NCBI GenBank assembly: GCA_903895725.1
Contig: CAITUV010000063.1
Coordinates: forward strand, 51,902 to 115,901
Source: an uncultured Myxococcales bacterium
GTDB taxonomy: Bacteria > Myxococcota_A > UBA9042 > CAIXZC01
Length of the DNA: 64,000 nucleotides
Direction: 5' to 3'
The notes beneath the pieces were generated by a model. The model did no database searches and was not told the DNA's origin. It saw nothing but the letters and a program-made list of their open reading frames with translations. This document shows positions 41,273 through 60,296 of the stretch, one piece after another (position 1 is the first letter of the stretch; every line of letters begins with the position of its first letter). The translations under genes were made by a program, and so were the position numbers.

Positions 41273-41469
41273 GAGCGAATGAGGCGTGGCTCCAAGGCCA
41301 CGTCGCAGTGAGCAACGAGCGTAGCTGCTGAGGCGACCATGCCAGAGGCACGAGACAGGACCAGCTGCAAGGCGCGAACGAGCGAGCGAATGAGGCGTGG
41401 CCCGCGCCACGTCGCAGTGAGCAAGCGACCGAGCTACGCCGCAGATGGTCCTGTATTCGTGACTCTGGC
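41273..41469. mobile_element. MITE-like palindromic element (41341-41469) preceded by a partial second copy of its core
   Basis: About 28-bp imperfect TIR GCCAGAG[G/T]CACGA..CAGGACCA[G/T]CTGC; core GAGCGAATGAGGCGTGGC..GCCACGTCGCAGTGAGCAA at 41273-41315 and 41384-41424. Confidence 0.7.
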
Positions 41470-43616
41470 TACTGCTTGCGGAGGACGAAGGGATAGTTGA
41501 CCTTCACGACGCCGCCACCCTGGGGAGCCGGGAAGCGCCAGGTCATGATCTTCTGCTCGACGCACCCTTCCAGCTCCTTGTCCGCCAGGGAGGAGTTGAT
41601 CACCTTGGCCGACATGACCGATCCGGTCGGGGAAATCACGAAGGAAACAGTGAGCTTGCCTTCCAGCTCGGGGTTCTTCTGGAACGCCTTCTGGTAGCAC
41701 CACCGGATCTTGGCAAGCTGCTTGCGGATGTAGTTCTTGACGACCTCGCGGTCCAGCTTGCCGCCACCCGACATGTCGAAGTTGGCCGACGGCGTGATCT
41801 TGACCGCCTTGTCCTTGAACTTCGGGTTCTTGACCGAGCTCGAGACCTTCTTCTTGTCGAGCTCCTCGAAGTCCTTGCCCGAGATGAGGTTGTCCCCTCT
41901 CATGGCCGCTCCGTCGGCACCGACCGATCCGGCAAACCCACCGGCACCGGCCGCTCCGCCTTCGCCTTCCAGCCCGGAGCCGGAGCCGGCCACGCCCGAC
42001 AGATCGAACGGGTCGCTGTCCGCAGAGCCGCCCAGATCCATGCCGCCGGACCCGAGACCGCTGATGGCCAGATCTCCCACCGGCTGGAACGAAGAATCGA
42101 TGTCCATCCCGCCGGCACCGAAGTTGGACCCCACCACCTTCATACCCGCGTTGTTCAGGGCCGCCAGAGCACCGGTCGACCGGACCTTGTCCTTGGAGAC
42201 CGGCGTGCTCATCGAGGAAAGCTTCTTCTTGTCCGACTTGGTCTTGAGGTCGCTGACGAGCGACTTCTTCTCCGCCGTGGTGAACGCCACCTTCTTGGTG
42301 ACGACCCGCTTCTCCTCGACCACCTTCTCTTCCAGGAGCGGATCCTTCTCGACTTCCTCGTCCAACGGCTCGTCCTCGTCCTTCTTCACTTCCTCCTGCT
42401 TCTCCTCCTTCTTCTTCTCCTTCTCGACGTCGTCCTTCTTCTTCTCCTCCTCTTCCTTCTTCTGCTTCTCGGCCTTGATCAGGGTCTTGAAGGAGCGGGA
42501 CTGGGCCGCTGCAAGCTTCACCACCCGCTCGGTCTTGGGGGCCGCCATCATCGACAGCAGGAAGAGCGCACACAGGAAGAATGCCAGCCCGAAGCTCGAC
42601 AGGAACGGGACGTTGATCTCGCCCAGCAGACCGGCCTTGGGTTCCCGCAGGGACGGATCGAGACCCAGGATGAACGTGACATGGCCGATCTCGATGCGGG
42701 CCCGGGTCTTGTAGTCCAGGGGCAACAGGTTCTTCTCCCGCATGAACGAGGTCTTCTTGATGTCCTCGACCGGCAGGATCTGCCCTTCCATCATGATTCG
42801 GCCGCGCACGGCCTGGTTCTCCAGGTTCAGCGCCGGCTTGTTCTTGTAGGACACGATGAGGTCATAGTCCTCGGACCCCAGGAGATCCTGCGGTACGAAG
42901 AAGTCCGCCCGCTTCGACTGGCCCACCCGGATTGATTTGAACTGTGCCTCCCGAGGCCAGGCAAACAGATCCTTGACCATGACGAAGACCATGATGTCCG
43001 TGATGATGAAGCACACGATCACCGCGGTCAGGGCCGGGCCGTAGTCAGCCATCTTGCCGGCAACGTACATGCTCCGCAGGGACGAGTAGTACGCCCAGAC
43101 GAACCATAGCTCCACCGCCAGCACCGACACCGTGAACGCGATGCTGTGCACGATGTGCTTGGCCGATTTGCCGAACCGGCTGACCGCAACCACCGAGTCG
43201 CCCCACATCTGAGCGATGTTGAGCACCGGGCGGTGCACCAACTCGTACGACTTCCACTTCGCCCCGTCGCGGGCCGAAGCCTTCGGAACCGGCGCCTCGG
43301 CGGCCTTCTTGACCCGAATCGCCAGCGTCGTGTCGCCCACCTTGAGCTCGTCTCCGTCGGACAGCAGGATGCTCTCCGCGATCCGGTTCCCGTGCAGGTA
43401 AGTGCCCGTGCTGGTCCCCAGGTCACGCAGCCGAACGGCCCCCTCCGGAGACACTTCGATGCGGGCGTGCTCTTTGCCCGCTGCCGTCTCCTCGAGCGGT
43501 ACGTCGCACGATACGGCGCGGCCAATCAGGAAGGAGCTCTTCGAGAAGGTGTACGGCTTCTCCTTCCCCGATGCATCCCGGACGACGACTGTGATTTCTA
43601 CCTTGCTCTGGCTCAT
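41469..43616 (-). CDS. gltG: GltG/PglI-like protein: FHA domain, TM, periplasmic linker, TonB_C-like domain
   Basis: IGRA..HARI..DLGTSTGTYLHG; QMWGD; LDREVVKNYIRKQLAKIRWCYQK..LEGKLTVSFVI..WRFPAPQGGGVVKVNYPF. Confidence 0.85.
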   Translation of the reverse strand: MSQSKVEITVVVRDASGKEKPYTFSKSSFLIGRAVSCDVPLEETAAGKEHARIEVSPEGAVRLRDLGTSTGTYLHGNRIAESILLSDGDELKVGDTTLAIRVKKAAEAPVPKASARDGAKWKSYELVHRPVLNIAQMWGDSVVAVSRFGKSAKHIVHSIAFTVSVLAVELWFVWAYYSSLRSMYVAGKMADYGPALTAVIVCFIITDIMVFVMVKDLFAWPREAQFKSIRVGQSKRADFFVPQDLLGSEDYDLIVSYKNKPALNLENQAVRGRIMMEGQILPVEDIKKTSFMREKNLLPLDYKTRARIEIGHVTFILGLDPSLREPKAGLLGEINVPFLSSFGLAFFLCALFLLSMMAAPKTERVVKLAAAQSRSFKTLIKAEKQKKEEEEKKKDDVEKEKKKEEKQEEVKKDEDEPLDEEVEKDPLLEEKVVEEKRVVTKKVAFTTAEKKSLVSDLKTKSDKKKLSSMSTPVSKDKVRSTGALAALNNAGMKVVGSNFGAGGMDIDSSFQPVGDLAISGLGSGGMDLGGSADSDPFDLSGVAGSGSGLEGEGGAAGAGGFAGSVGADGAAMRGDNLISGKDFEELDKKKVSSSVKNPKFKDKAVKITPSANFDMSGGGKLDREVVKNYIRKQLAKIRWCYQKAFQKNPELEGKLTVSFVISPTGSVMSAKVINSSLADKELEGCVEQKIMTWRFPAPQGGGVVKVNYPFVLRKQ

Positions 43617-43636
43617 TGCACCAACCTATCCACGGG

Positions 43637-43891
43637 CTAGAGGTCCTCAGCCGATCGAACGATCTCGTCCACAAAATCCTGTCGGATCTTGATCAGGCTG
43701 GCGATCTTCTCCTGCTCGATCACGCCGACGAAGCCCATCTCCGGCTTGAGGAAGCTCACGGTCACCTCGTCCTCCTCGAAGTTGAAGACCGTCTCGTCGG
43801 CCCCCTTCTTCTTGTCCTTGGCCTGGACCAGGGCTGGCAGCCCGATGGAGAACGCCACTGCCACTGCGACCATCGTCAGAAGCCTCTTCAT
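43637..43891 (-). CDS. gltF: GltF/CglF-like small exported protein
   Basis: Signal peptide; TVFNFEEDEV..LKPE..SLIKIRQDFVDEIVRSAEDL; located between gltE and gltG. Confidence 0.8.
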   Translation of the reverse strand: MKRLLTMVAVAVAFSIGLPALVQAKDKKKGADETVFNFEEDEVTVSFLKPEMGFVGVIEQEKIASLIKIRQDFVDEIVRSAEDL

Positions 43892-43914
43892 GGTCTTCCT
43901 CCCATTGCGACCCG

Positions 43915-43920
43915 ATTATA
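43915..43920 (-). promoter_or_regulatory. Perfect TATAAT -10 upstream of gltF (possible internal promoter)
   Basis: TATAAT 24 bp before ATG 43891 in a 124-bp gap; no clear -35. Confidence 0.35.
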
Positions 43921-44015
43921 GCTCACTCTCCCCCAATGCACCATAGTCGCCGTATTGCCCGGTTCCAAACCCCGGCAGGCGGCGCACTGACACCCGACCC
44001 CATGCCGGGTTCCCA

Positions 44016-45470
44016 TCATTTTCCACCCTCGCTCGGACTTCCCGTCTCGGCCGGCTTCTCCGGTTCCGCCGGCTTCTCGGTCCCCGTCTCGGCCGGCTTC
44101 TCAGGCTCTGCCGGCTTCCCGGTCCCGGTCTCGGTCTCGGCCGGTTTCTCCGGTTCCGCGGGCTTCTCGGTCCCCGGTTCCTCCGCGGGCTTCTCGGGCT
44201 CGGCCGGCTTCTCCGGCTCCGGCGGACGTTCCGCCTCGAGCTTCTTCATTTCCTCCATGGCCTTGATCGTCTCGCGGATACCCTTGATGCGGAGCTCCAT
44301 CTCCTTGAACTTCGGGTGCTTCTTGTCCAGCCGGCTCTGGAATTCCTGGCAGGTGCCGAGAGCGCTCTGGAGGTCCTGGATGTACTCGTGCTCCAGGATG
44401 CAGAGGTTGTACCGGCCATCGAGCTGGGAAGGATCGCGGTTGACGAGGTCCCTGAGCAGCTTGCGGGCTTCGTCGAAGCGCTCCAGTCCACGCAGCGAGA
44501 GGGCATAGGAGATCTGGAACTCGGTGTTGGCCGGCTCAGCCTTGAGCACGATTTCAAACTCCCGGGCAGCCAGCTCGAAGTCCTTGAAGTTGAGAGAAAC
44601 GGCCGCCAGGTTCTTGTGGGCATCGAGATAGGCGGAATCGGCCATGGTGGCGGCCTGGAAGAGCGTGATGGACCCCTTGATGTCATCCCGCTTGAGCTGG
44701 ATGAGGCCCATGAGGTTCAGGATCGGGGCATTGTTCTTGTCGATGCGCAGGGCGCTCTCGCAGACCAGCTCGCCGACGTCGTACTGCCCCTTGCGGAACA
44801 GGGCGATGGCCATGTTGAGGTACGCATTCATGTTGTTGGGATCGCCCAGGAGAGCGATTCGGCAGTGCTTGATCGCCTCGTCCAGATTCCCCTCATTGAG
44901 GGCCTTCTGGGACAGATAGTTCCGGGCCGGAGCGCAGTACTTGTCGGCCAGGAGCGCCTGGTCGATGAGCATGGTGGCCTTGTCGGTCTCGTTGTTGAGC
45001 GCGGCCAGCACGCCGAGCTGCGCCGTGGCTTCGGAGAAGTCCGGTGCCCGGCTCAGCACCTGCTGGAAGTAGCTGGCGGCCTTGTCGCGGGCCCCGAGGC
45101 GGAGGTAGAACACGCCAAGGTCGTACACGGCCTCGACCACGGGGTCGTTGCCGCCGGACAGGCGGAGCAGCTCGGCCTCGACCTCGCTGCCCAGGGCAAG
45201 TTGAGCCGGGTCCGCCTTGAGGCGCTCGAGTGCCTTGCGGAGCTCGGCACCGGGGCCGGTTTCCTCGATGGGAGCGGCCGCTTCGCCGACGGTCTCCTCG
45301 GTCCCCTCTCCTCCCTCGGTCGCTTCGACGTCGACGGGGGAATCGCCCGTGGGAGTCTCCTCGAGAGGGGAATCCCCGGTTGCCGGGGTCTCATCCGCAG
45401 GCTGGGAGAGGGCCGGCAACGCGGCCACGGTCAACGACAAGAAGGTTGCAATGGCGAGCAGCGTTCTCAT
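44016..45470 (-). CDS. gltE: GltE/AglT-like TPR protein with C-terminal PAEPEK repeats
   Basis: Sec signal; multiple TPRs; position between gltD and gltF; ATGA-type overlap with gltD. Confidence 0.75.
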   Translation of the reverse strand: MRTLLAIATFLSLTVAALPALSQPADETPATGDSPLEETPTGDSPVDVEATEGGEGTEETVGEAAAPIEETGPGAELRKALERLKADPAQLALGSEVEAELLRLSGGNDPVVEAVYDLGVFYLRLGARDKAASYFQQVLSRAPDFSEATAQLGVLAALNNETDKATMLIDQALLADKYCAPARNYLSQKALNEGNLDEAIKHCRIALLGDPNNMNAYLNMAIALFRKGQYDVGELVCESALRIDKNNAPILNLMGLIQLKRDDIKGSITLFQAATMADSAYLDAHKNLAAVSLNFKDFELAAREFEIVLKAEPANTEFQISYALSLRGLERFDEARKLLRDLVNRDPSQLDGRYNLCILEHEYIQDLQSALGTCQEFQSRLDKKHPKFKEMELRIKGIRETIKAMEEMKKLEAERPPEPEKPAEPEKPAEEPGTEKPAEPEKPAETETGTGKPAEPEKPAETGTEKPAEPEKPAETGSPSEGGK

Positions 45471-48400
45471 TTCGTCTCACCTCCCGGTGCGGGCGTGCCG
45501 GTCGGAGCAGCCCCGGGCGGGGTTTCTCCTGCTGGCGGCGCCGTCCCCGCCGGTGGAGTCCCTGCCGGTGGAGTCCCTGGCGGTGGAGTCCCTGCCGGCG
45601 GAGTCCCTGCCGGCGGAGTCCCCGGAGCCGGAGGTACCGGCTTGCTGCCCGACTCGTCGGCAGAGGCCTTGAACACCACCACCTTGCGCAGCTTGAAGTC
45701 GGGGGGATTGGCTCCTGCCGAGAGGAAGCCGGGCCGGACACGGTATTCCTTCATGCCCGCGAACTGGAATTCCAGCACAGACAGGCGCTGTTCCGCCTTT
45801 TCCGTGTAGTCATTGAAAATATGGTTGGTCTTGGCTTCCTCCAGGCATTTCTTGTAGGCAGCGGCGGCCTTCGTGCGGAAGGCCTGGGCAGCCTCGGAGA
45901 GCTGGAGCTTGTACTCCTCCTGTTCGTCCTCGGTCAGCCCGGGGGGCATGGGGGAGTTCTCGAAGTCGTCGCCGAACTTCTCCCAGGCAGCACCGATCTT
46001 GTACAGAGCGGCGCTGTTCCAGAAGGGCTGCTTGAGGCTGAGGACGGTGAGGTAGAGCTTCTCCGCCTCGGTGGTGATGCGGATCTTCTTCTCCGTGTCC
46101 TCCTTGAGGGTCTTGCGGGTCAGCTTGATGCTGACGGCCTCTTCGAACATGGCGTCCGCATTGTTGAAGTAGGCCCAGGCGATGGCGGTGATGCCTCGGC
46201 GGCCCACCTTCTTCTTGTCTTCGTCGGAAAGCTTCTTGAACGTGTCGATGACGGCCTCGAACTGCTTGCGGGCCTCCTTGATCTTCTTTTGCGCGGCCAG
46301 GCACTCGCCGATCTCCTGGTATGCGGCCAGGAGGAGGTTGACGCCGCCGGCAGCCCGGTACCTGGCCAGGTAGTTGTTGTAGTGCTTGATGGCCTCGGTG
46401 TACTTCCCCTCCCGCTTGTAAAGGGTGCCGATGTCGAAGAAGACGGCCGGGACCTTCGGGTCCTTCTTGAACAGGTTGATGTACCGCTCGTAGTTGCGGA
46501 TCGCCTCCTGGTTCTGGCCCAGACCCCGGCGGAACGCGGACGCGAAGATCAGCGCTTCCTTGACCTTGACCTCCTTGGGGTGGTCCTGCGCGTACTTCTC
46601 GTAGTAATCGGCTGCCTGGTCGTAGACTGCGGCCGCCCGGTAGGTCTCCGCAATCAGGTACAAGGCCCGGGGGCCGAGCTTGGAGGAGCGGGCGCAGCAG
46701 TTGTAGAGCTGGGCGTTGGCCTTGAGGGCCTTCTCGTACTTGCGGGCCCGCTGGTAGTTGACGGCCGCGTTGTAGAGCGACTTGTCCATGAGCTTGGACT
46801 CGGGGAACTTCACGGTGTAGTCCACGAAGCAATCCGCCGCAGCCTCGAACTGCTTATCGAACTCGTACTGGAAGCACCGGTTGAACTTGGCCCGGTCGCG
46901 GATCTTGTTGATGATGGCCAGCAGCTCCCCTTGGGCCAGGGCCGGCATGGCGTACAGCTTGTCGGCCCAGGCGTTGAGGCTGTTGATGTCGCGAAGCATG
47001 GTGAAGCTGGACAGGAGCAGTTTGGCCGAGTCCGGGGCCACTTCGCTGGTCGGATACTGCTCGACCAGCTCGGACAGCCGAGGGGCCGCATCCTTGAAGT
47101 GATTGAAATCATACAGGATCTTTGCCGCAGCGAACTTGGCCTGGATGATCTCTTCCGGGTCGTCCGAACCGATGCCGACGAAGCGGTCGCACGCGGTGAC
47201 CATGTTGGCATACTGCTCGGGGATCTCGGTCTCTTTGGCCTGGTCTTCTTCCTCCTCCCCCTTGACCACGGTCTTCTTCGAGGTGTCGATGACCTTGTAG
47301 TAGCACATCAGGGCGGTGTAGGCAGCCTCCTTGGCGTACTTGCCCTGGGGATCCATGGCAATCACGCGCTCGTACTCGACGACGGCCTTGCCGTAGTCTT
47401 CGAGCTGGTAGAGCAGGATGGCGTGGTTCATCAGCATCTGGTAGCGGCCCGAGCCCTCGGGGAACAGGCGCAGATAGTGGTCGTACACCTCCTGGGCCAG
47501 GAGCATGGCCTTCTTCTCCATGGTCTTCTGGGCCTCGAAGTGGTAGGTGATGGCCATAGTGCGCAGGAGCTCTTCGACCTTCTCCTTCTCCTGGGCGATG
47601 ACGGAGGAGTTCTCCTTCTGGAGAGCCTCGTACAGCTCGACCATCCGGATGATCTCAGTGCGGGTCCGGACCTTGTCCGCAGTCTTGTCCGCTGCCTCGA
47701 CGATGTTGCGCTGGTAGGTGAGGACGGTAGGCGATTCCGGCTCTTCCGCAATGATGTTGCGGTACATCGTGATCGCCTTCTCGTACTCGCCCTGGTCCAG
47801 GTACAGCCGGGCAAGCCGGGCCGACAGCACCAGGTAGATCTCCGGAGCGATTCCCTTGAAGAACGGGATGGCCTTGGCTTCCTTGCCGATCTGGCTGTAA
47901 GCCAGGACGATGTCCTTCTGGGCCTCGGCCTTCAGGCCGATTTTGCCGGTGGTGCCTTCCTTCTCGGCCTCCATGGCGTACTGGATGACTTCAACGAACT
48001 TCTTGAAAGCCTCCTCGTACTCGCCCATGTTGTAATGACACCAGGCCTGCTTGTAGATGGCAAATGGATAAATCTTAGAATCCGGGAAACTAATAACTCT
48101 TTTGTAGAATTCGATTGCGGTGTCGAACTCGTCCTGCTGGAAATAATACTCTCCAACGTTCACAAGAGCATCGGGGAGGTATTTTGATTCTGGGAAGCTC
48201 GTGATTAGTTGGGTATAGTAATTATACCCAGCTTCGTACTCGCTCATCTGGGTGCTGAAGTTGCCCAGGTAGAAGAGGACCATGTCGAGCTTGTCGTAGT
48301 CCGGGTACTTCTGCTCGATTTCCTGGAAGATCTTGATGGCCTTGCGGCGCCATTCCTTCTGCTGCTCCAGCAGGCCGTCCCGCTTGGCCTCGGCGAGGCG

Positions 48401-48817
48401 GACGCGTTCTTCGTCGTTGGCGTTCTGGGCAGCTAGGATCTCCTTGTCGAGCTCATCGGAGTAGGCCTGCATGAAGTAGCTCTCGGCCTTTTCCCAGTAG
48501 AGGTTGGCAAGACGAGCGTAGTAGACCGGCTTTTCCGGATCGTCTTCTTCGGCGTAGTCGATGATGCGGTACAGCGACTCGATGGCGGCCTGGAGCTTCT
48601 CTTCGGAAGCGCTGGGCTTGACCCGGTAGAGGTCTTCTGCGGAGAGACCCGGTCGAGGCTTCTTACCCTTGGTCTCCTCCTTCGGCTTGACCTCTTCCTT
48701 CTTGACCTCGCCTCCGGTATCGATCTTCGGGACATAGCCCTTCCCCTGCCCGTAGGACGGGACTGGGGGGGCATATGCCGCAAGCAGGACGATGGCGAAC
48801 AGTAGGGCTCGTTTCAT
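45467..48817 (-). CDS. gltD: GltD/AgmU-like large TPR protein with C-terminal PAGTP repeats
   Basis: Signal peptide; 1116 aa of TPR/YbgF-like repeats (YKQAWCHYN, LYNAAVNYQ); gene order. Confidence 0.8.
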   Translation of the reverse strand: MKRALLFAIVLLAAYAPPVPSYGQGKGYVPKIDTGGEVKKEEVKPKEETKGKKPRPGLSAEDLYRVKPSASEEKLQAAIESLYRIIDYAEEDDPEKPVYYARLANLYWEKAESYFMQAYSDELDKEILAAQNANDEERVRLAEAKRDGLLEQQKEWRRKAIKIFQEIEQKYPDYDKLDMVLFYLGNFSTQMSEYEAGYNYYTQLITSFPESKYLPDALVNVGEYYFQQDEFDTAIEFYKRVISFPDSKIYPFAIYKQAWCHYNMGEYEEAFKKFVEVIQYAMEAEKEGTTGKIGLKAEAQKDIVLAYSQIGKEAKAIPFFKGIAPEIYLVLSARLARLYLDQGEYEKAITMYRNIIAEEPESPTVLTYQRNIVEAADKTADKVRTRTEIIRMVELYEALQKENSSVIAQEKEKVEELLRTMAITYHFEAQKTMEKKAMLLAQEVYDHYLRLFPEGSGRYQMLMNHAILLYQLEDYGKAVVEYERVIAMDPQGKYAKEAAYTALMCYYKVIDTSKKTVVKGEEEEDQAKETEIPEQYANMVTACDRFVGIGSDDPEEIIQAKFAAAKILYDFNHFKDAAPRLSELVEQYPTSEVAPDSAKLLLSSFTMLRDINSLNAWADKLYAMPALAQGELLAIINKIRDRAKFNRCFQYEFDKQFEAAADCFVDYTVKFPESKLMDKSLYNAAVNYQRARKYEKALKANAQLYNCCARSSKLGPRALYLIAETYRAAAVYDQAADYYEKYAQDHPKEVKVKEALIFASAFRRGLGQNQEAIRNYERYINLFKKDPKVPAVFFDIGTLYKREGKYTEAIKHYNNYLARYRAAGGVNLLLAAYQEIGECLAAQKKIKEARKQFEAVIDTFKKLSDEDKKKVGRRGITAIAWAYFNNADAMFEEAVSIKLTRKTLKEDTEKKIRITTEAEKLYLTVLSLKQPFWNSAALYKIGAAWEKFGDDFENSPMPPGLTEDEQEEYKLQLSEAAQAFRTKAAAAYKKCLEEAKTNHIFNDYTEKAEQRLSVLEFQFAGMKEYRVRPGFLSAGANPPDFKLRKVVVFKASADESGSKPVPPAPGTPPAGTPPAGTPPPGTPPAGTPPAGTAPPAGETPPGAAPTGTPAPGGETK

Positions 48818-48841
48818 GGTGCCTCCCGCCTCTGAGCTCCG

Positions 48842-50437
48842 CTAGGGCTTTGCCGGCTTCGGTGCTTCCGGGCACAGGTTCTCAACTCGGAAAAGATAGG
48901 AATCCAGCTCGTCCTTCCAATACTCGCCGTCGAAGGGCCATGCGAGGTGCTCGTCGTCCCGACGGACGACCCAGCCGGTGCTTTGCCCCTGGGCCTTTGC
49001 GCCCTCGCGCTTGCCTTCGATGACTTCCTTGAGGGCGTTGAGCGACTCGAACTTGACCTTCATGGCCTGGCCGACGAGGCGTTGGAGCTCGCGGCGCTTG
49101 AGGTCGAGCCGGGCGCGGGCCTGCTCGCCGGTTTCGCCGATGGCCAGCTCTCGGTAGGTGACGAGCTCGCCCAGGAGCCGCTCGGCCAGGTCCTTCTGGA
49201 CCGCGGCCTGGCGCATGCTCTCGAGGAGGGCCTCCTCGCGGTCGAGCGCGACGATGAACGAGAAGAGGCGGTAGAGCTTCTTGTCCGCCAGGGCGAGGTT
49301 GAAGATTCTCTTGAGCTTGCGGGAGAACCCCTTGCCCTTGGCCGACAGGGCCGCGAGCCAGTAGTAGAAGTCCGCAGGGTCCTCGTTCTGGGCAAGCTGG
49401 GTGTTCATCTCCTTGCGGAGGTCGTCGTACTCGCGCACGAAGGCGTCGACGACGACGATGGCATCCTCGTAGCGGCAGTTGGAGAAGAGAATCACGGCCT
49501 GCAGGACGCGGGACTCGGGGAAGTACTGCTCCTCGAAGTACGGGGAGTTGAGCGTGTGCAGGTTGCCCATGGCCCGCTCGTTGTTGTTGGCCCGGAAGAA
49601 GGTCCAACTCTTCTCGAACAGGGCCTGCAGCCAGTCGCCCGAGTACTTCTCGATTTCGTCGTAGTACTTGAGTGCCCGGTCGAAGTCGCCGGTGGAGTAG
49701 AAGATTCGGGCGATGGCCATGATGGCCCGCGACCGGAACTTCTGCGCGAGGGCCGACGGAGCCACGCTGCCCTGGACGTAGCGCAGGACCTCCTTGAAGG
49801 CGTCGAGCGATTCCTTGGCCTTGTTGCGGCGGGCGTGGATGGCCCCGGTCAGGTAGGTGGACGGGAGGTAATGCTCCTCGGACTTGGCGTCGACGACCTT
49901 GAGGGCATCCAGTGCGGAATCGAGATCGTCCTGGGTGTAGTAGAACTGGCCCACTGTATGGGCGATCTCGTTCTTCAGCTCGGGTGGGTAGCTCTCCGCC
50001 GGATAGGCAGCCAGGTACTCACGAACCCCCTGGAACCCCGGTACCTCGCGGGAAATCTGCACCAGCCAGGGCAGGGTCTTGAGGAAGTAGGCGTGGGTAT
50101 CGCCGCCGTCCACGATACGGGCGAAGTAGGTGAAGGAGGAGTAGACCAGGCCGAGGTTGTGGAGGTTGACGGCCATGGCATACTCGGCCTCTTTGTAGTA
50201 GTCCTCCACCGGCTCCCCGCGCTCGAGGATTCCGTTGAAGGCGACGCAGGCCTCGTAGTAGTAGCCGTTGTCGGCCAGGGTGGTGCCTTCCTTGAGCAGC
50301 CCCAGGAAGAACTGGCGCTTGCCGGAATCCGCCGCAGCGGCGGCGGCCGGAGTCTCCTCCTCTTCCTGGCACAGCCCGACGTGGCTCCACATCCCGAGGC
50401 ACAGGATCACGGCCAATGCAGACAGCGGTCTCATCAT
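48842..50437 (-). CDS. gltC: GltC-like TPR protein
   Basis: Signal peptide after ATG 50437; ALFEKSW..AMGNLHTLNSPYF; C-terminal WPFDGEYWKDEL motif. Confidence 0.8.
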   Translation of the reverse strand: MMRPLSALAVILCLGMWSHVGLCQEEEETPAAAAAADSGKRQFFLGLLKEGTTLADNGYYYEACVAFNGILERGEPVEDYYKEAEYAMAVNLHNLGLVYSSFTYFARIVDGGDTHAYFLKTLPWLVQISREVPGFQGVREYLAAYPAESYPPELKNEIAHTVGQFYYTQDDLDSALDALKVVDAKSEEHYLPSTYLTGAIHARRNKAKESLDAFKEVLRYVQGSVAPSALAQKFRSRAIMAIARIFYSTGDFDRALKYYDEIEKYSGDWLQALFEKSWTFFRANNNERAMGNLHTLNSPYFEEQYFPESRVLQAVILFSNCRYEDAIVVVDAFVREYDDLRKEMNTQLAQNEDPADFYYWLAALSAKGKGFSRKLKRIFNLALADKKLYRLFSFIVALDREEALLESMRQAAVQKDLAERLLGELVTYRELAIGETGEQARARLDLKRRELQRLVGQAMKVKFESLNALKEVIEGKREGAKAQGQSTGWVVRRDDEHLAWPFDGEYWKDELDSYLFRVENLCPEAPKPAKP

Positions 50438-50500
50438 CCCCTCTCCCTCGTGCGCGGTGCGTAAAGCTCCCTTAAAGAACTGACACTCATAGTCTCTTAT

Positions 50501-50529
50501 TCCATAGGCGACGGGACGGGAAGTGTCAA
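50501..50529 (-). promoter_or_regulatory. Putative promoter of the glt-like operon
   Basis: Perfect TTGACA, then N17, then a weak -10 TATGGA. Confidence 0.35.
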
Positions 50530-50633
50530 GAAAAAACCGGGGTTCGAAGGGGGGGGGGAACACCCCCCTTTACAGACCGAGGCATTCTGACGCATCATCC
50601 GGGATCGTGGTCTTTTCCTGGAGGAGGTCGGCC

Positions 50634-55156: not shown

Positions 55157-58100
55157 CTACTTGGCCGGCTCGGCCGGCTTGTCAGCGGGGGCAGCGGCAG
55201 CAGGCTGGGCACCTTCGGCCGGCTTGTCAGCGGGGGCAGCGGCAGCAGGCTGGGCACCTTCGGCCGGCTTGTCAGCAGGGGCAGCGGCAGCAGGCTGGGC
55301 ACCTTCGGCCGGCTTGTCAGCGGGGGCAGCGGCAGCAGGCTGAGCGCCTTCGGCCGGCTTGTCAGCAGGGGCAGCGGCAGCAGGCTGGGCGCCTTCGGCC
55401 GGCTGAGCGGCTCCCTCGGCTTCCTTCTTCGCCTCCGCCTCGGCCTTGGCCTTCTCCTCCTCCAGCTTCTGCTTGCGGACGGAGTCGAACTGGCGGATGG
55501 CCGTGTCCGACACGATCTCGAAAAGCGGGTAGGATTCCTTGACGGCCGCGATCTGGGCCTCGTCGAGCTTCTTGTCCGCCAGGGCCTGCGCCAGAAGGCG
55601 GTCGATGGTGCCCCGGATCGGAGTGGTCAGGGCCGCATACCGGGCGAAGGTCTCGTCCGGGATTCCCCAGCGCTTCTGCGTCTCGGTGTCCCCAAACACC
55701 GCAATATCCTGGAAGAGATGCCACAAATCGTCATAATTCTCCATGAGGAAGTCGACCAGATTCGCATCAGCCGAGAAGAACTTCGCGGCATCGAAATCCT
55801 GGTTAGCGGCATCCTCGACCAGGGAGCGGGCATTCCATTTCTGGGTGGCCGGATCCTGCTCGGACCATTCGAGCTTGGCGTTGTAGACGAGGATGGCACC
55901 GAGCGTGTACTTCTCGGGCAGCTCGAGGAATTCCCGATATTCCTTGAGGTCGGCCTCGGACACGCCGCGGACGCCCTGGCTCTTGTCGAAGTCTTCCTTG
56001 GCCATGCCGAGGGCGATGCCGACGAACTTGTCGATCACGCCGCGCAGGTCGGGGTCATCCAGGGCCCACTTCTTGGTCTTGGCCAGGGTCTTCTGGACCT
56101 TGACCTCGAGGATGCCCTGCTCGACTGCGGCCTTCAGGTAGGCCCGGGCCTTGGCCTTGATATAGAACTTGCGTTCGATTTCCCTCTTCATGAGCCCGAG
56201 AATGACGGCGGAACGATAGATGTCCTGAGTGAATCCAAAAAAGTCGAGCTTCTTCTTTGTAAGCTTGTCCTCTGCCTCTTTCTGACAGGCGATCGAGGTG
56301 TTTTCGATGTACTTCTCGACCGCTGCGGTATCGCTTGCGGGCGGGTAGTCCTTGATCTTGGTGAAGCAGATGTAGCGGACGGCCTTCTGGTACTTGCGCA
56401 TGAGCTCGGCCAGCTTCTCCTTCTGCTGCTGGTAGCGCTCCTGGCGTTTCTTGATTTCGTCGCGGTAGGTCTTCTCGAGCTCGTCTGCGGTGAGGGCGAG
56501 GTCGGCGAGCATGCGCTGGCGGACCTTCTCGATCTCATCCGGGGAGAGGAGTTTGTCCTTGAGGGCGCTGACCTTGAGCTCCTGGAACTCCTTGGCCAGT
56601 GCGATGCCCTTGATGGCATTCTGGGCGACCAGGCCGAGCGTGGCGCCGGTGCCGAAGTAGTCGGAGACGTCGAGGGCCTCGGTGGCGACCTTCTGGAGGA
56701 GCTCCAGGGAGCGGGCGGTGCCGAGGTACTTGAAGCCGGCGATGGCCATGAGGCGCTTGACCTTGAGGTCGGAGCCGAGCCAGTCTTCGACCAGCGGGGT
56801 GACCTTGGCGTCGACACGCTTGTCGAGCTCGGCCATGAAGGCCGGGTCGATGAGGAAGTCGGGCTTCTCGGCCGGAGCGGCGGGGGCAGCGGCAGCGGCC
56901 TCGGCGGGCTTGTCCGCGGCGGGGGCAGCGGCGGGGGCAGCGGCAGCGGCCTCGGCGGGCTTGTCCGCGGCGGGGGCAGCAGCGGGGGCAGCGGGGGCAG
57001 CGGCGGCAGCAGCGGCGGCAGCGGCGGCCTGCTCCTTCTGCCATCGGTCCTCGAACTCCTTGAGAAGGGCTTCACGCTGTTTCTCGACGAGCGGGTCGAG
57101 GAAATCGGAAACGACTCCGTAGAAGAATTTGGCCGCGTGGAATCCCTTGACCGAGAGGTAGGCCTTCCAGCTGGTGTGCTTCTCCCCGTCGACTTCCTTC
57201 TCGATGACCAGGGGGACGTCCTTGAGTCCCTGGACCTGGGACTTTTCGAGGAAGATCTGGGCCTGCTTGAGGCGGCCCATTCCGGTGCTGTCGCGGATTT
57301 CCGGGAGCTTGGTGACGATGACAGAGAGCACCTTGTCGATGTGCTTGTTGACTTCTTTTTCCGGGACGACGACGTCGAACATCCTCTCTGCGATGATCAG
57401 GGCCTCGTACTGGCTGGCCGGGTCGATCTTGGGGTTGCGGGCGAGGTCGAGAAGATAGAGGACCGCTGCGGTGGAGTCGAACTTCTCGACGAGGACGATA
57501 TCCTGGGGGTCGAAGAAGGCTTCCTTGTCGGTATCCATCTGCTTGAACAGGGCCTTGTGCTGGCGCTTGAGGGCTTCCAGGGCATCGGCCTTGTACTTGA
57601 TGGCAACGGCCTTCCTCTCTGCGTTATCATCGTCCGGGTTGTAGAAGGAGAAGATGTACTCGATCCAGTTGAGCAGGCTCCAGGATTCGGACTCGACGCG
57701 CTTCTCAATCATGATCAGCACGTAGGGCACGGCGAAGTCGCCGAGGTCGCGGACCTGGTTGAGGGCGAGCTTCTTGCTCACCAGCTCCCAGATTTCCTCC
57801 TTGGACTTCTCGACGGCAACACCGGCAAAGGACCAGGCGGTGAGAGCCTTCTGGGAGTCGATGCGGTGCTTCTCGTCCATGGTGCCGAGGAGCTGGAACA
57901 GGCCGTCGCGGGCGCTCTGGGCCTGCTCTTCGGTGCCGGAGCTCAGCGACTCGATGAGCTTTTCCGCCACGGCGGAGGCGAGCTCTTCGGGATTGGGATA
58001 CTTGGTGACGATGCCTCGGATGCTCGCGGACCAGCCGTTCTCCACGAGAACCTGAATGGCTCGGGTCTTGATGTGAAGCGGCTGAGCTTCATCCTGCATC

Positions 58101-58255
58101 AGCTCGCCGATCCGCTTGAGCCCCTCCTCATTCTGGGACCATTTCGTGAGATCCTCGTCGGTGATGGGGCCGCACGAGGCAGCCAGGGAGACCAGGGCCG
58201 CAAACACGATTGCCACGATGCCCTTTCCTCGACTGGAGAAGCCCTGAAGTTGCAT
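55157..58255 (-). CDS. Large alpha-helical lipoprotein with Ala/Pro-rich repeat linkers
   Basis: GAGGAGGG RBS; lipobox LAASC; helical charged sequence; internal and C-terminal PA-rich repeats. Confidence 0.85.
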   Translation of the reverse strand: MQLQGFSSRGKGIVAIVFAALVSLAASCGPITDEDLTKWSQNEEGLKRIGELMQDEAQPLHIKTRAIQVLVENGWSASIRGIVTKYPNPEELASAVAEKLIESLSSGTEEQAQSARDGLFQLLGTMDEKHRIDSQKALTAWSFAGVAVEKSKEEIWELVSKKLALNQVRDLGDFAVPYVLIMIEKRVESESWSLLNWIEYIFSFYNPDDDNAERKAVAIKYKADALEALKRQHKALFKQMDTDKEAFFDPQDIVLVEKFDSTAAVLYLLDLARNPKIDPASQYEALIIAERMFDVVVPEKEVNKHIDKVLSVIVTKLPEIRDSTGMGRLKQAQIFLEKSQVQGLKDVPLVIEKEVDGEKHTSWKAYLSVKGFHAAKFFYGVVSDFLDPLVEKQREALLKEFEDRWQKEQAAAAAAAAAAAPAAPAAAPAADKPAEAAAAAPAAAPAADKPAEAAAAAPAAPAEKPDFLIDPAFMAELDKRVDAKVTPLVEDWLGSDLKVKRLMAIAGFKYLGTARSLELLQKVATEALDVSDYFGTGATLGLVAQNAIKGIALAKEFQELKVSALKDKLLSPDEIEKVRQRMLADLALTADELEKTYRDEIKKRQERYQQQKEKLAELMRKYQKAVRYICFTKIKDYPPASDTAAVEKYIENTSIACQKEAEDKLTKKKLDFFGFTQDIYRSAVILGLMKREIERKFYIKAKARAYLKAAVEQGILEVKVQKTLAKTKKWALDDPDLRGVIDKFVGIALGMAKEDFDKSQGVRGVSEADLKEYREFLELPEKYTLGAILVYNAKLEWSEQDPATQKWNARSLVEDAANQDFDAAKFFSADANLVDFLMENYDDLWHLFQDIAVFGDTETQKRWGIPDETFARYAALTTPIRGTIDRLLAQALADKKLDEAQIAAVKESYPLFEIVSDTAIRQFDSVRKQKLEEEKAKAEAEAKKEAEGAAQPAEGAQPAAAAPADKPAEGAQPAAAAPADKPAEGAQPAAAAPADKPAEGAQPAAAAPADKPAEGAQPAAAAPADKPAEPAK
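55172..55396 (-). repeat. In-frame 45-bp tandem repeat, 5 copies (EGAQPAAAAPADKPA)
   Basis: Direct inspection. Confidence 0.93.
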
Positions 58256-58997: not shown

Positions 58998-60296
58998 ATG
59001 TCTGGATTCCGTGCCCTGATTCCTTGTCTCGTGGCCGCGCTGATGGGGACCGCATCCTGCGGTCGGACTCAGGCCCCTGCCAACCCCGCTCCGGCTCCAA
59101 CCGATCCGGCCAAGGGGGCGGCCTCGAGCGAGGCATCCACGGGACCCGCCGCCCCCGGTGAGCCGGCCGGCAAGACCGACAACGCTGTCGCTGCCGGGGA
59201 GGCCGGAAAGGCCGGGGCTCAGGCCGAGGCCGGCAAGGAACCGCAGGCCGAGGCCTCCGGCGAGGCCGGCAAGACGGAGGAAGAACGTCCTGCACAGGGA
59301 GCGGAGGCATCTCCCGAGGCGGACAGGGCCCGGAAGACCCGACAGCTCGCCTCCGAGCATGCCCCGGCCCCGGGCGAGCCCGTGGTCGCCTGGACCGAGG
59401 GGAAGAAGGTCTTCCGGCCTGACTTCGAAAGCTACGTCGCCCGCTTGCCCGTGTTCCAGAAACGGGAGCTGGCATCGCTCGAGAAGAAACGGGAGCTCCT
59501 GCTCAACTACATCAAGTTCGACACCCTGGCCGACCTCGCCGTGAAGGAAGGGCTCGACCGCGACCCGGACGTGCTGCTCGCTGCCAGAACTGAGATGGTA
59601 AAAAAGTATATCCAAAAGAAGTTTGGTGAAGATGTAAAGGTTGATGTATCTGAATCGGAAATAGTTCAACAATATGAAAGAGATATATCCATGTACAATA
59701 AACCCGAGAGGGTCCGGGTGAGTCACATCCTCCTGCCCGACCGGGTCCAGGCTCAAAACGTGCTCCAGGAGCTCAAGAGCGTGCTGGCCTCCCCCGATAC
59801 CAGCACCCGGCAGGTGTTCCGGGATTTCGTCCGCAAGTACAGCGTGGACGAAGCAACCAACAGCCGGGGAGGGGATCTCCTGTTCTTCTCGCGCGACGGC
59901 CAGGTGGACGGGAGCGAGGTGAAGGTGGACCCCGCTGTCGTCTCTGCAGCGTTCGCGATGCAGAACATCGACCAGATCAGCGACGTGATCGAAGGGAAGG
60001 ACGGGTTCCACATCCTGACGCTCATGAATCGCCGGGAGAAAGTGGAGAAGCCGCTCGAATCGGTCCGGGAGGACATCCGGCAGAACATCGCCCGGGAGAA
60101 GCTGGATCGGGACCGCCGGGAGTTCATGGACACGCTGGTCGATTTCTCGGCCTGGCAGGTCGAGGCAGGGGAGCTCAACAAGGTGGTGGTCGAGGATGTT
60201 CCGCCGTCGCCGGCTGCGGTCAAGGAGCGGGTGGACAGCATCAAGGCCCCGGGGAAGGAAGCCCCCGCCACCAAGGAAGGGGAGCAGGTGCAATGA
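58998..60296 (+). CDS. PpiC/parvulin-type peptidyl-prolyl isomerase lipoprotein
   Basis: Lipobox TASC; PERVRVSHIL, SVDEATNSRGGDL, AAFAM, GFHIL. Confidence 0.92.
   Translation: MSGFRALIPCLVAALMGTASCGRTQAPANPAPAPTDPAKGAASSEASTGPAAPGEPAGKTDNAVAAGEAGKAGAQAEAGKEPQAEASGEAGKTEEERPAQGAEASPEADRARKTRQLASEHAPAPGEPVVAWTEGKKVFRPDFESYVARLPVFQKRELASLEKKRELLLNYIKFDTLADLAVKEGLDRDPDVLLAARTEMVKKYIQKKFGEDVKVDVSESEIVQQYERDISMYNKPERVRVSHILLPDRVQAQNVLQELKSVLASPDTSTRQVFRDFVRKYSVDEATNSRGGDLLFFSRDGQVDGSEVKVDPAVVSAAFAMQNIDQISDVIEGKDGFHILTLMNRREKVEKPLESVREDIRQNIAREKLDRDRREFMDTLVDFSAWQVEAGELNKVVVEDVPPSPAAVKERVDSIKAPGKEAPATKEGEQVQ

Follow-up and report, generated by a model that had tools for sequence, protein, structure and literature searches.

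The gltD-like gene and its island of A/T-ending codons

A short stretch within a large gene of an uncultured Myxococcales bacterium has an abrupt excess of codons that end in A or T. The DNA analyzed (the window) is a 64,000-nucleotide stretch of a draft genome (GCA_903895725.1, contig CAITUV010000063.1, here C63:51902-115901). The gene, at 45467..48817 of the window on the minus strand, encodes a GltD-like periplasmic protein of 1116 amino acids with an N-terminal signal peptide, many tetratricopeptide repeats (TPRs), and a Pro/Thr-rich tail. It was recognized from its open reading frame (ORF) and translation, its TPR matches, and its position between a GltC-like gene and GltE-, GltF-, and GltG-like genes. 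The island covers codons 195-252 (48062..48235, minus strand), of which 31 of 58 end in A or T. As described below, the island is a real feature of native DNA that has a fixed position, occurs in one genus only, and affects silent sites only.

The island differed sharply from the rest of the gene. The G+C content at third codon positions (GC3) was 0.47 in the island and 0.84 in the whole gene; the 60-codon flanks had values of 0.93 (upstream) and 0.87 (downstream). A sequence-only reading of the window had reported the 31 A/T-ending codons in an otherwise G/C-ending gene, with their bounds and the abrupt edges, and all of these held up. Based on the amino-acid-specific codon usage of the genome, 8.7 A/T-ending codons were expected (Poisson-binomial P = 5e-12 for the 31 observed); based on the codon usage of the gene itself, 6.8 were expected (P = 3e-16). 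The island contains codons that are very rare in the genome (CTA, AGA, AGT, TCA, TCT, CCA, CAA, AAA, and also GTT, each with 1-7% usage), and it is a run, beyond chance, of synonymous codons that are rare by own usage, as in the rare-codon clusters of Clarke and Clark and of Chaney et al. A blind log-likelihood maximal-segment scan of the approximately 3,470 ORFs of the 7.06-Mb draft genome recovered exactly 48062-48235. The segments with higher scores were low-complexity tandem repeats, non-coding 5' extensions of ORFs, and one comparable island in a folded protein (C62:45240-45413, on another contig).

The peptide encoded by the island is ordinary TPR sequence, and alignment with orthologues showed no indels, both as the sequence-only reading had stated. 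In the protein, matches to TPR models were found at residues 215-243 (TPR_1), 252-281 (TPR_2), and 193-279 (TIGR02795). Downstream of the island, the codon alignment showed a weak 3' tail at codons 253-261 (48035..48061, minus strand), with TGT and CAT at codons 260-261. Sister lineages (described below) also have A/T-ending codons in this region, at codons 253, 254, 258, and 266.

The amino acid composition of the peptide did not account for the shift. The amino-acid-specific expectation above already takes composition into account. In addition, the 45 codons directly upstream of the island had a lower G+C content at first and second codon positions (GC12) than the island itself (0.34-0.37), yet in each of the four lineages of the genus that we compared, their GC3 was 0.89-0.98. 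This upstream flank could carry long runs of A and T (for example, in the codons for KIKIF), but its codons remain G/C-ending, indicating that peptide composition alone does not produce the shift.

The island is not an artefact of assembly. The sequence of the host gene was identical in five separate assemblies: the window, contigs in the European Nucleotide Archive (ENA) from two samples (the MEGAHIT contig L001 and a 190-kb scaffold), and two single-run Logan assemblies. Relative to L001, the sole difference starts within the repeats of the tail, approximately 2.6 kb from the island. The draft is metagenome-assembled, with 88 contigs and an estimated contamination of 4%, and a chimera in which assembly or binning joined a lower-GC strain into the contig might be considered. 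This is close to inconceivable, given that the five assemblies agree and that three further lineages, from other samples, have a shifted patch at the same position. The 3' end of the gene (45467-45700, minus strand) encodes the Pro/Thr/Gly-rich tail (GTPPAGTPPAG...); it has low GC3 owing to its repeat codons, and it differs in length by 15 nucleotides between two assemblies that are otherwise identical.

The genes around the host gene resemble those of a gliding machinery. Upstream and on the same strand is a GltC-like TPR gene (48842..50563, minus strand) that matched NF033756 (gliding_GltC) with 288 bits, not reaching the cut-off of 450. A block of Glt-like genes lies downstream (41469..45470, minus strand) and consists of a GltE-like gene (44016-45470), a GltF/CglF-like gene (43637-43891), and a GltG-like gene with FHA and TonB-C domains (41469-43616). 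We assigned these to families by their best NCBIfam matches (NF033758, NF033764, and NF033760, respectively), each under the curated cut-off. In the Agl-Glt gliding machinery of Myxococcus, GltD (AgmU) is a large periplasmic TPR protein encoded beside gltE, gltF, and gltG. No GltD-specific model matched the host protein. The name gltD, which the sequence-only reading had used, appears reasonable by position, solely in the sense of gliding motility; the gene does not encode glutamate synthase. An Nfs-like paralogous system could equally be the home of the gene (for that system, see Luciano et al. 2011, PMC3169522).

Position and origin of the island in the genus

The island is present at the same position in all sampled lineages of the genus and is absent from the rest of the family. 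We obtained further lineages of the genus from the 90% cluster of the protein and from a scan of metagenomes: L009 (the sister species G001 in GTDB), L010-L012, and L036. With the lineage of the window, these make four related bacteria from lakes. Over codons 195-266, the fraction of A/T-ending codons (AT3) was 0.46 in the window, 0.31 in L010, 0.31 in L009, and 0.38 in L036, compared to 0.02-0.13 in the flanks. Orthologues of the host gene were present in every genome of the family that we searched. In two other genera, AT3 over the same codons was 0.04-0.10, and seven further orthologues from the family had no dip in GC3. These orthologues from other genera are 50-79% identical in amino acid sequence, and two of them have a generally lower GC3 (0.74-0.79), still with no dip. 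Thus, codon rarity at the homologous position was found in four lineages of the genus and was absent from nine orthologues in other genera of the family. The sequence-only reading had suggested looking at this position in relatives, and had taken an absence of positional conservation together with a matching low-GC donor as grounds to abandon its view; the position proved to be conserved, within the genus only, and no such donor was found.

Conservation applies to how densely rare A/T-ending codons occur, not to the sequence. The third-position patterns of the window, L010, L009, and L036 define a core at codons 216-252 (48062..48172, minus strand) that is A/T-shifted in all four lineages; as read from these patterns, approximately 20 of the 37 core codons end in A or T in the window, 11 in L010, and 18 in L009. 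The sites that are A or T mostly differ among lineages, with a W-state correlation inside the island of 0.08-0.27. Seven A/T-ending codons (195, 216, 234, 236, 240, 246, and 247) are found in all three lineages that align in full; the others are lineage-specific. Three of the seven are in codons 234-240 (48098..48118, minus strand), which read GCA, an Ile or Ser codon, GAA, TTC, TAC, AAR, and AGA. Codon 240 is the rare Arg codon AGA in the genus and CGC or CGG in other genera. Among close relatives, L010 and L011/L012 differed at 2 of 72 island codons, compared to 4 of 907 codons elsewhere. A fixed position with differing A/T sites matches the prediction of either a constraint on a property of the stretch or a persistent local bias.

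The island does not appear to have been imported from a low-GC donor. The sequence-only reading had offered, as one explanation, a short homologous replacement from such a donor. Amino acid identity to orthologues was 0.74-0.83 in the island and 0.72-0.82 in the flanks, and GC12 in the island was 0.38-0.40 in the genus and 0.38-0.42 elsewhere, indicating that only silent sites have moved. Among 185,579 GTDB species representatives, none other than G001 encodes the genus-specific island peptide YYFQQDEFDTA. Gene conversion from a paralogue was rejected; a blastn search of the whole genome with the island found only the island. Only a close relative could have served as donor, and the sampled relatives outside the genus maintain a GC3 of at least 0.74 across the same stretch. 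Together, the equal identity, the unchanged GC12, and the lack of another carrier of the peptide disfavor a low-GC donor, and the replacement proposal was not supported. The island showed neither the discordance or extra divergence nor the plausible donor expected of a patch acquired horizontally or by recombination.

Other islands in the window and the genome

A second island in the window behaves like the first. It lies at 59586..59702 on the plus strand, in a gene (58998-60296) that family matches identify as PpiC/PrsA-like isomerase, and 28 of its 39 codons end in A or T, including ATA, AGA, and GTA. In other lineages of the genus, 17 of 39 (L058) and 19 of 39 (L059) codons are A/T-ending; the sister species G001, with 2 of 39, lacks the shift. 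The A/T sites overlap between lineages no more than by chance. Transitions and transversions both contribute to this island, and pure cytosine deamination was rejected based on its many C>A and G>T changes. The amino acid divergence is somewhat raised inside it. The genome scan missed this gene because of an overlapping ORF. The second island starts at codon 197 and the main island at codon 195; the sequence-only reading had allowed that this might be coincidence, and it looks like one, given that the other islands start elsewhere.

Approximately ten real islands were found in the genome (an approximate number, as 5' ORF extensions and low-complexity repeats were among the segments that the scan picked up). 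Two strong ones lie outside the window: 58 codons in the gene for a small beta-rich protein beside a GltD paralogue (C62:45240-45413, minus strand), and 33 codons in the gene for a membrane protein (C44:207896-207994, minus strand). G001 has an A/T shift at the corresponding position in both genes, and the genera represented by G002-G004 do not. Another island, C50:33168-33284, had no orthologue in relatives. Based on these comparisons, local departures in silent-site composition are a stable, genus-specific feature.

Low-GC coding patches clustered on a few contigs. There were five on C63 (P = 0.03) and four within 50 kb of C62 (P = 0.004), and both contigs have Glt-like clusters. Regular spacing along contigs was rejected; the patches are clustered, with a coefficient of variation of 1.43. 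The genome-wide change-point scan that had been suggested with the sequence-only reading, run here as a segment scan, recovered the main island, and the start codons of the islands were unrelated.

Weaker patterns were seen in other genes. In a gene of 1032 codons in the window (55157-58255, minus strand), mild A/T bumps (AT3 of 0.25-0.45) at codons approximately 401-430 and 631-690 coincide with those in G001, which suggests a conserved landscape of codon bias within the gene, where silent sites are otherwise near saturation. Two paralogous TPR genes (C19:125442-125625 and C32:76808-76955) have low-GC patches at a homologous motif, GEYYF...YALYKLAW.YYN. These dips are mostly at codon positions 1 and 2 (GC3 of 0.76-0.78) and are compositional patches, not silent-site islands.

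Silent sites outside the main island are close to saturation between lineages of the genus. We compared 575 codons outside the island that encode the same amino acid in five sequences. The observed synonymous difference, as a ratio to the saturated difference, was 0.71 between the window and L010, 0.83 between the window and L009, and 0.81 between L010 and L009; the plateau between genera was 0.81-0.94 (mean of 0.88). For the window and L009, the W-state correlation was 0.116, inside the between-genus baseline of 0.05-0.23. The residual shared ancestry of silent sites in the deepest pair was about 0.06 +/- 0.08.

These values were used to evaluate a single pulse of A/T enrichment that decays at the normal rate. 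Under this model, the product of the A/T excesses in two lineages is at most the square of the ancestral excess multiplied by the residual ancestry. For the main island, an ancestral patch of 100% A/T would need a residual ancestry of at least 0.095, and one of 80% A/T would need at least 0.16. With silent sites so nearly saturated, a one-off event would therefore need a patch that was approximately 100% A/T and timed exactly at the root of the genus, and the main island alone makes the one-off model less likely. For the second island, the same model needs a residual ancestry of at least 0.24, compared to an estimated 0.07-0.10, and 28 A/T-ending codons of 39 have a probability of 3e-6 under clock-like decay. 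The direction of change could not be read in the main island owing to the saturation of its silent sites.

A relic of a single event in the ancestor of the genus is quite improbable based on these results. In this explanation, a low-GC homologue replaced the stretch, or a burst of clustered mutations hit it, and each lineage has decayed independently since. The confinement of the patch to one clade would fit, as would the seven shared A/T-ending codons, including AGA, which is more than one base change from CGC or CGG. Patches with an AT3 of 0.7-0.8 do occur in the genome, and the bound of 0.095 for an ancestor that was 100% A/T is within the error of 0.06 +/- 0.08. Against this are the extreme ancestor (approximately 80-100% A/T) at exactly the root, the failure of the model for the second island, and the need for such events at all four separate islands. 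In addition, the model requires a donor with nearly the same peptide; amino acid identity is equal inside and outside the island, the peptide is in no other species representative, and there is no match to a paralogue.

Causes of the silent-site shift

We found no specific DNA or RNA element in the island. The sequence-only reading had proposed information at the level of DNA or RNA, or a translational pause, overlaid on the coding sequence. This proposal is supported in its general form only, as a constraint on a property of the stretch, in that the shift is at the same position with different A/T sites in four lineages. A consensus scan found no sites for a sigma-70-type promoter in 47000-49200. 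The sole perfect TATAAT is missing from the L009 and L036 lineages, and the island does not resemble a sigma-70-type internal or antisense promoter. This TATAAT is within a perfect 7-bp hairpin, GGGTATA-ATTAC-TATACCC (48211..48229, minus strand), that, by sequence, fold, and comparison, occurs in the window lineage only and cannot form intact in the sister lineages; codon choices probably produced it incidentally. There was no match to an Rfam family in the island at E values up to 1. The sense-strand RNA folds better than shuffled sequences (z-score of -3.0), and covariation in the four-lineage alignment was negligible (a term of -0.94 and one compensatory pair), not the pattern of a structured RNA. 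Homologues of H-NS and Lsr2 (PF00816 and PF11774) were absent from the genome and from 12 relatives, with positive controls, in a search that left MvaT, Rok, and the HMGA-like CarD untested.

A second hairpin forms at codons 230-237 (48104-48127, minus strand) in all four lineages. Two Glu-Phe dipeptides encoded by GAR TTC and GAA TTC pair over 7-8 bp through the self-complementary GAATTC. In other genera, both dipeptides are encoded by GAG TTC and the hairpin cannot pair. This hairpin is probably a by-product of the GAA at codon 236.

An element defined by composition is unlikely to explain the island, although several observations point that way. Such an element would be an A/T-rich stretch of 110-200 bp that acts as an internal or antisense promoter, a patch bound by an AT-preferring chromosome protein, a site that melts easily, or an entry site of the RNase or Hfq type in a long glt operon mRNA. 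Consistent with this, density is kept without conservation of sites, the edge is sharp against a flank equally capable of carrying A and T, and low-GC patches cluster on the two contigs with Glt-like clusters. Also, GAA at codon 236 gives an antisense TAGAAT in all four lineages, compared to TAGAAC in other genera. Silencers bind AT-rich tracts in other GC-rich bacteria, as the xenogeneic silencer Lsr2 does in Streptomyces (PMC6584129). AT-rich genes contain active intragenic promoters, as described in the context of H-NS (PMC3923964). The results that count against an element are those above for promoters, Rfam families, covariation, and silencers, together with the lineage-specific TATAAT hairpin, the unshifted codon positions 1 and 2, and patches that are clustered and not regularly spaced. 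A broader proposal is that the genus keeps a small set of A/T-rich patches of 100-200 bp, defined by composition, in conserved genes, several of them in Glt-like clusters for envelope machines. A requirement at the level of DNA or RNA (for example, binding by an AT-preferring chromosome protein, easy melting of the DNA, or a point of entry into the mRNA) would override the preference of the genome for G/C at silent sites for the lifetime of the genus and leave the protein untouched. We consider this broader proposal improbable.

The closest known kind of feature is the conserved rare-codon cluster. In these clusters, codon rarity is conserved rather than codon identity, a published signature (Chaney et al. 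2017, PMC5438181). Like the clusters described by Clarke and Clark (2008) and Chaney et al. (2017, PMC5438181), the island lies within a conserved structural domain, not between domains, and is a statistically significant run of rare synonymous codons. Within the genus, rarity is kept at the homologous position while codon identity is not. Unlike them, its conservation ends at the boundary of the genus even though the peptide is conserved in the family, and it is one of approximately ten in the genome that favor peptides with many Tyr, Asn, Lys, Ile, and Phe residues; a role in translation or folding would be by analogy. The island also resembles the targets of Lsr2 and H-NS in being a short A/T-rich stretch within a gene, conspicuous against the 66% GC of the genome. 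Unlike those targets, its DNA is native, no H-NS or Lsr2 homologue was found, and it has no promoter-like site that we could find. Mosaics from short-patch recombination or transfer share with the island an abrupt change in composition inside a uniform gene. Unlike such mosaics, the island has no excess amino acid divergence and no donor that we found, and it is shifted at silent positions only, in all four sampled lineages and at different sites.

We favor the interpretation that the island is native DNA in which the balance of silent sites has been locally shifted, and is still being shifted, within one genus. Silent sites that are approximately 90% G/C elsewhere in the gene are approximately 50-70% G/C over this stretch of 37-72 codons in each of the lineages, and the positions that carry A or T turn over. 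The similar behavior of the islands at 59586, C62, and C44 strengthens the case for a continuing local shift. As its cause, we tentatively favor weak selection on the density of rare A/T-ending codons, either for codon rarity or for local openness; we give this reading, a continuing shift with selection, a probability of roughly 0.4. If selected, the cluster might slow ribosomes or keep the mRNA open while the second and third TPR repeats of the exported protein are made. Both the selection and the pause are what we infer from the pattern of codons.

Several observations weigh against this interpretation. For the main island, the argument from saturation separates the data from the most extreme one-off model by only about one standard error. 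No other genus of the family has the dip, despite a highly conserved protein segment; a pause related to folding would be expected to be shared more widely. Lastly, an AT3 of approximately 0.5 is also a possible outcome of A/T-biased mutation that is unopposed.

The last point leads to a neutral explanation, which we consider possible and on balance unlikely. In a few short stretches of this genus that are already A/T-rich at codon positions 1 and 2, whatever normally holds silent sites at G/C (codon selection or GC-biased conversion) would fail, or A/T-biased mutation would be raised, and silent sites would drift to mutational equilibrium with no function. The fixed position would then follow from the conserved peptide context only. 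Windows of 30 codons reached an AT3 of at least 0.5 in 1.5-2.3% of cases at GC12 below 0.4, compared to 0-0.07% at GC12 of 0.4-0.6, and the islands are strongly enriched in low-GC12 contexts. The AT3 near 0.5, the limitation of the shift to one genus, and the absence of a motif, promoter, RNA family, or silencer in the searches made are also consistent with neutrality, as are the differences between L010 and L011/L012 (2 of 72 codons in the island and 4 of 907 elsewhere). However, the upstream flank has lower GC12 than the island and keeps a high GC3 in all four lineages. Genome-wide, low-GC12 windows are bimodal: most have an unusually high GC3 (mean AT3 of approximately 0.09) and are not islands, and 1.5-2.3% are strongly A/T-shifted. 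We conclude that a low-GC12 context permits the shift and does not cause it. The mixture of transitions and transversions in the second island also means that simple deamination is insufficient.

A weak lead for altered mutation comes from the uracil-DNA glycosylase (UDG) superfamily. There was one UDG match each in this genome and in G001, and five of seven relatives in the family had a second, weaker-scoring paralogue. The single match in the genus could reflect a difference in repair or the incompleteness of the drafts. The relative G008 also has a single match, and it has no dip.

The island is informative under either a selected or a neutral origin. If selected, it would be a natural example of a constraint on the density, and not the sequence, of silent sites in a conserved protein of an envelope machinery. 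It comes with a built-in control, neighboring genera with the same peptide and without the patch, and whether internal rare-codon clusters have a function would become directly testable by recoding. If neutral, it would mark a local failure of the force that raises GC, and would help to tell apart the contributions of codon selection, biased gene conversion, and mutation bias to high GC3. In both cases, a sharp break in composition within a gene need not signal transfer or misassembly, a caution for annotators.

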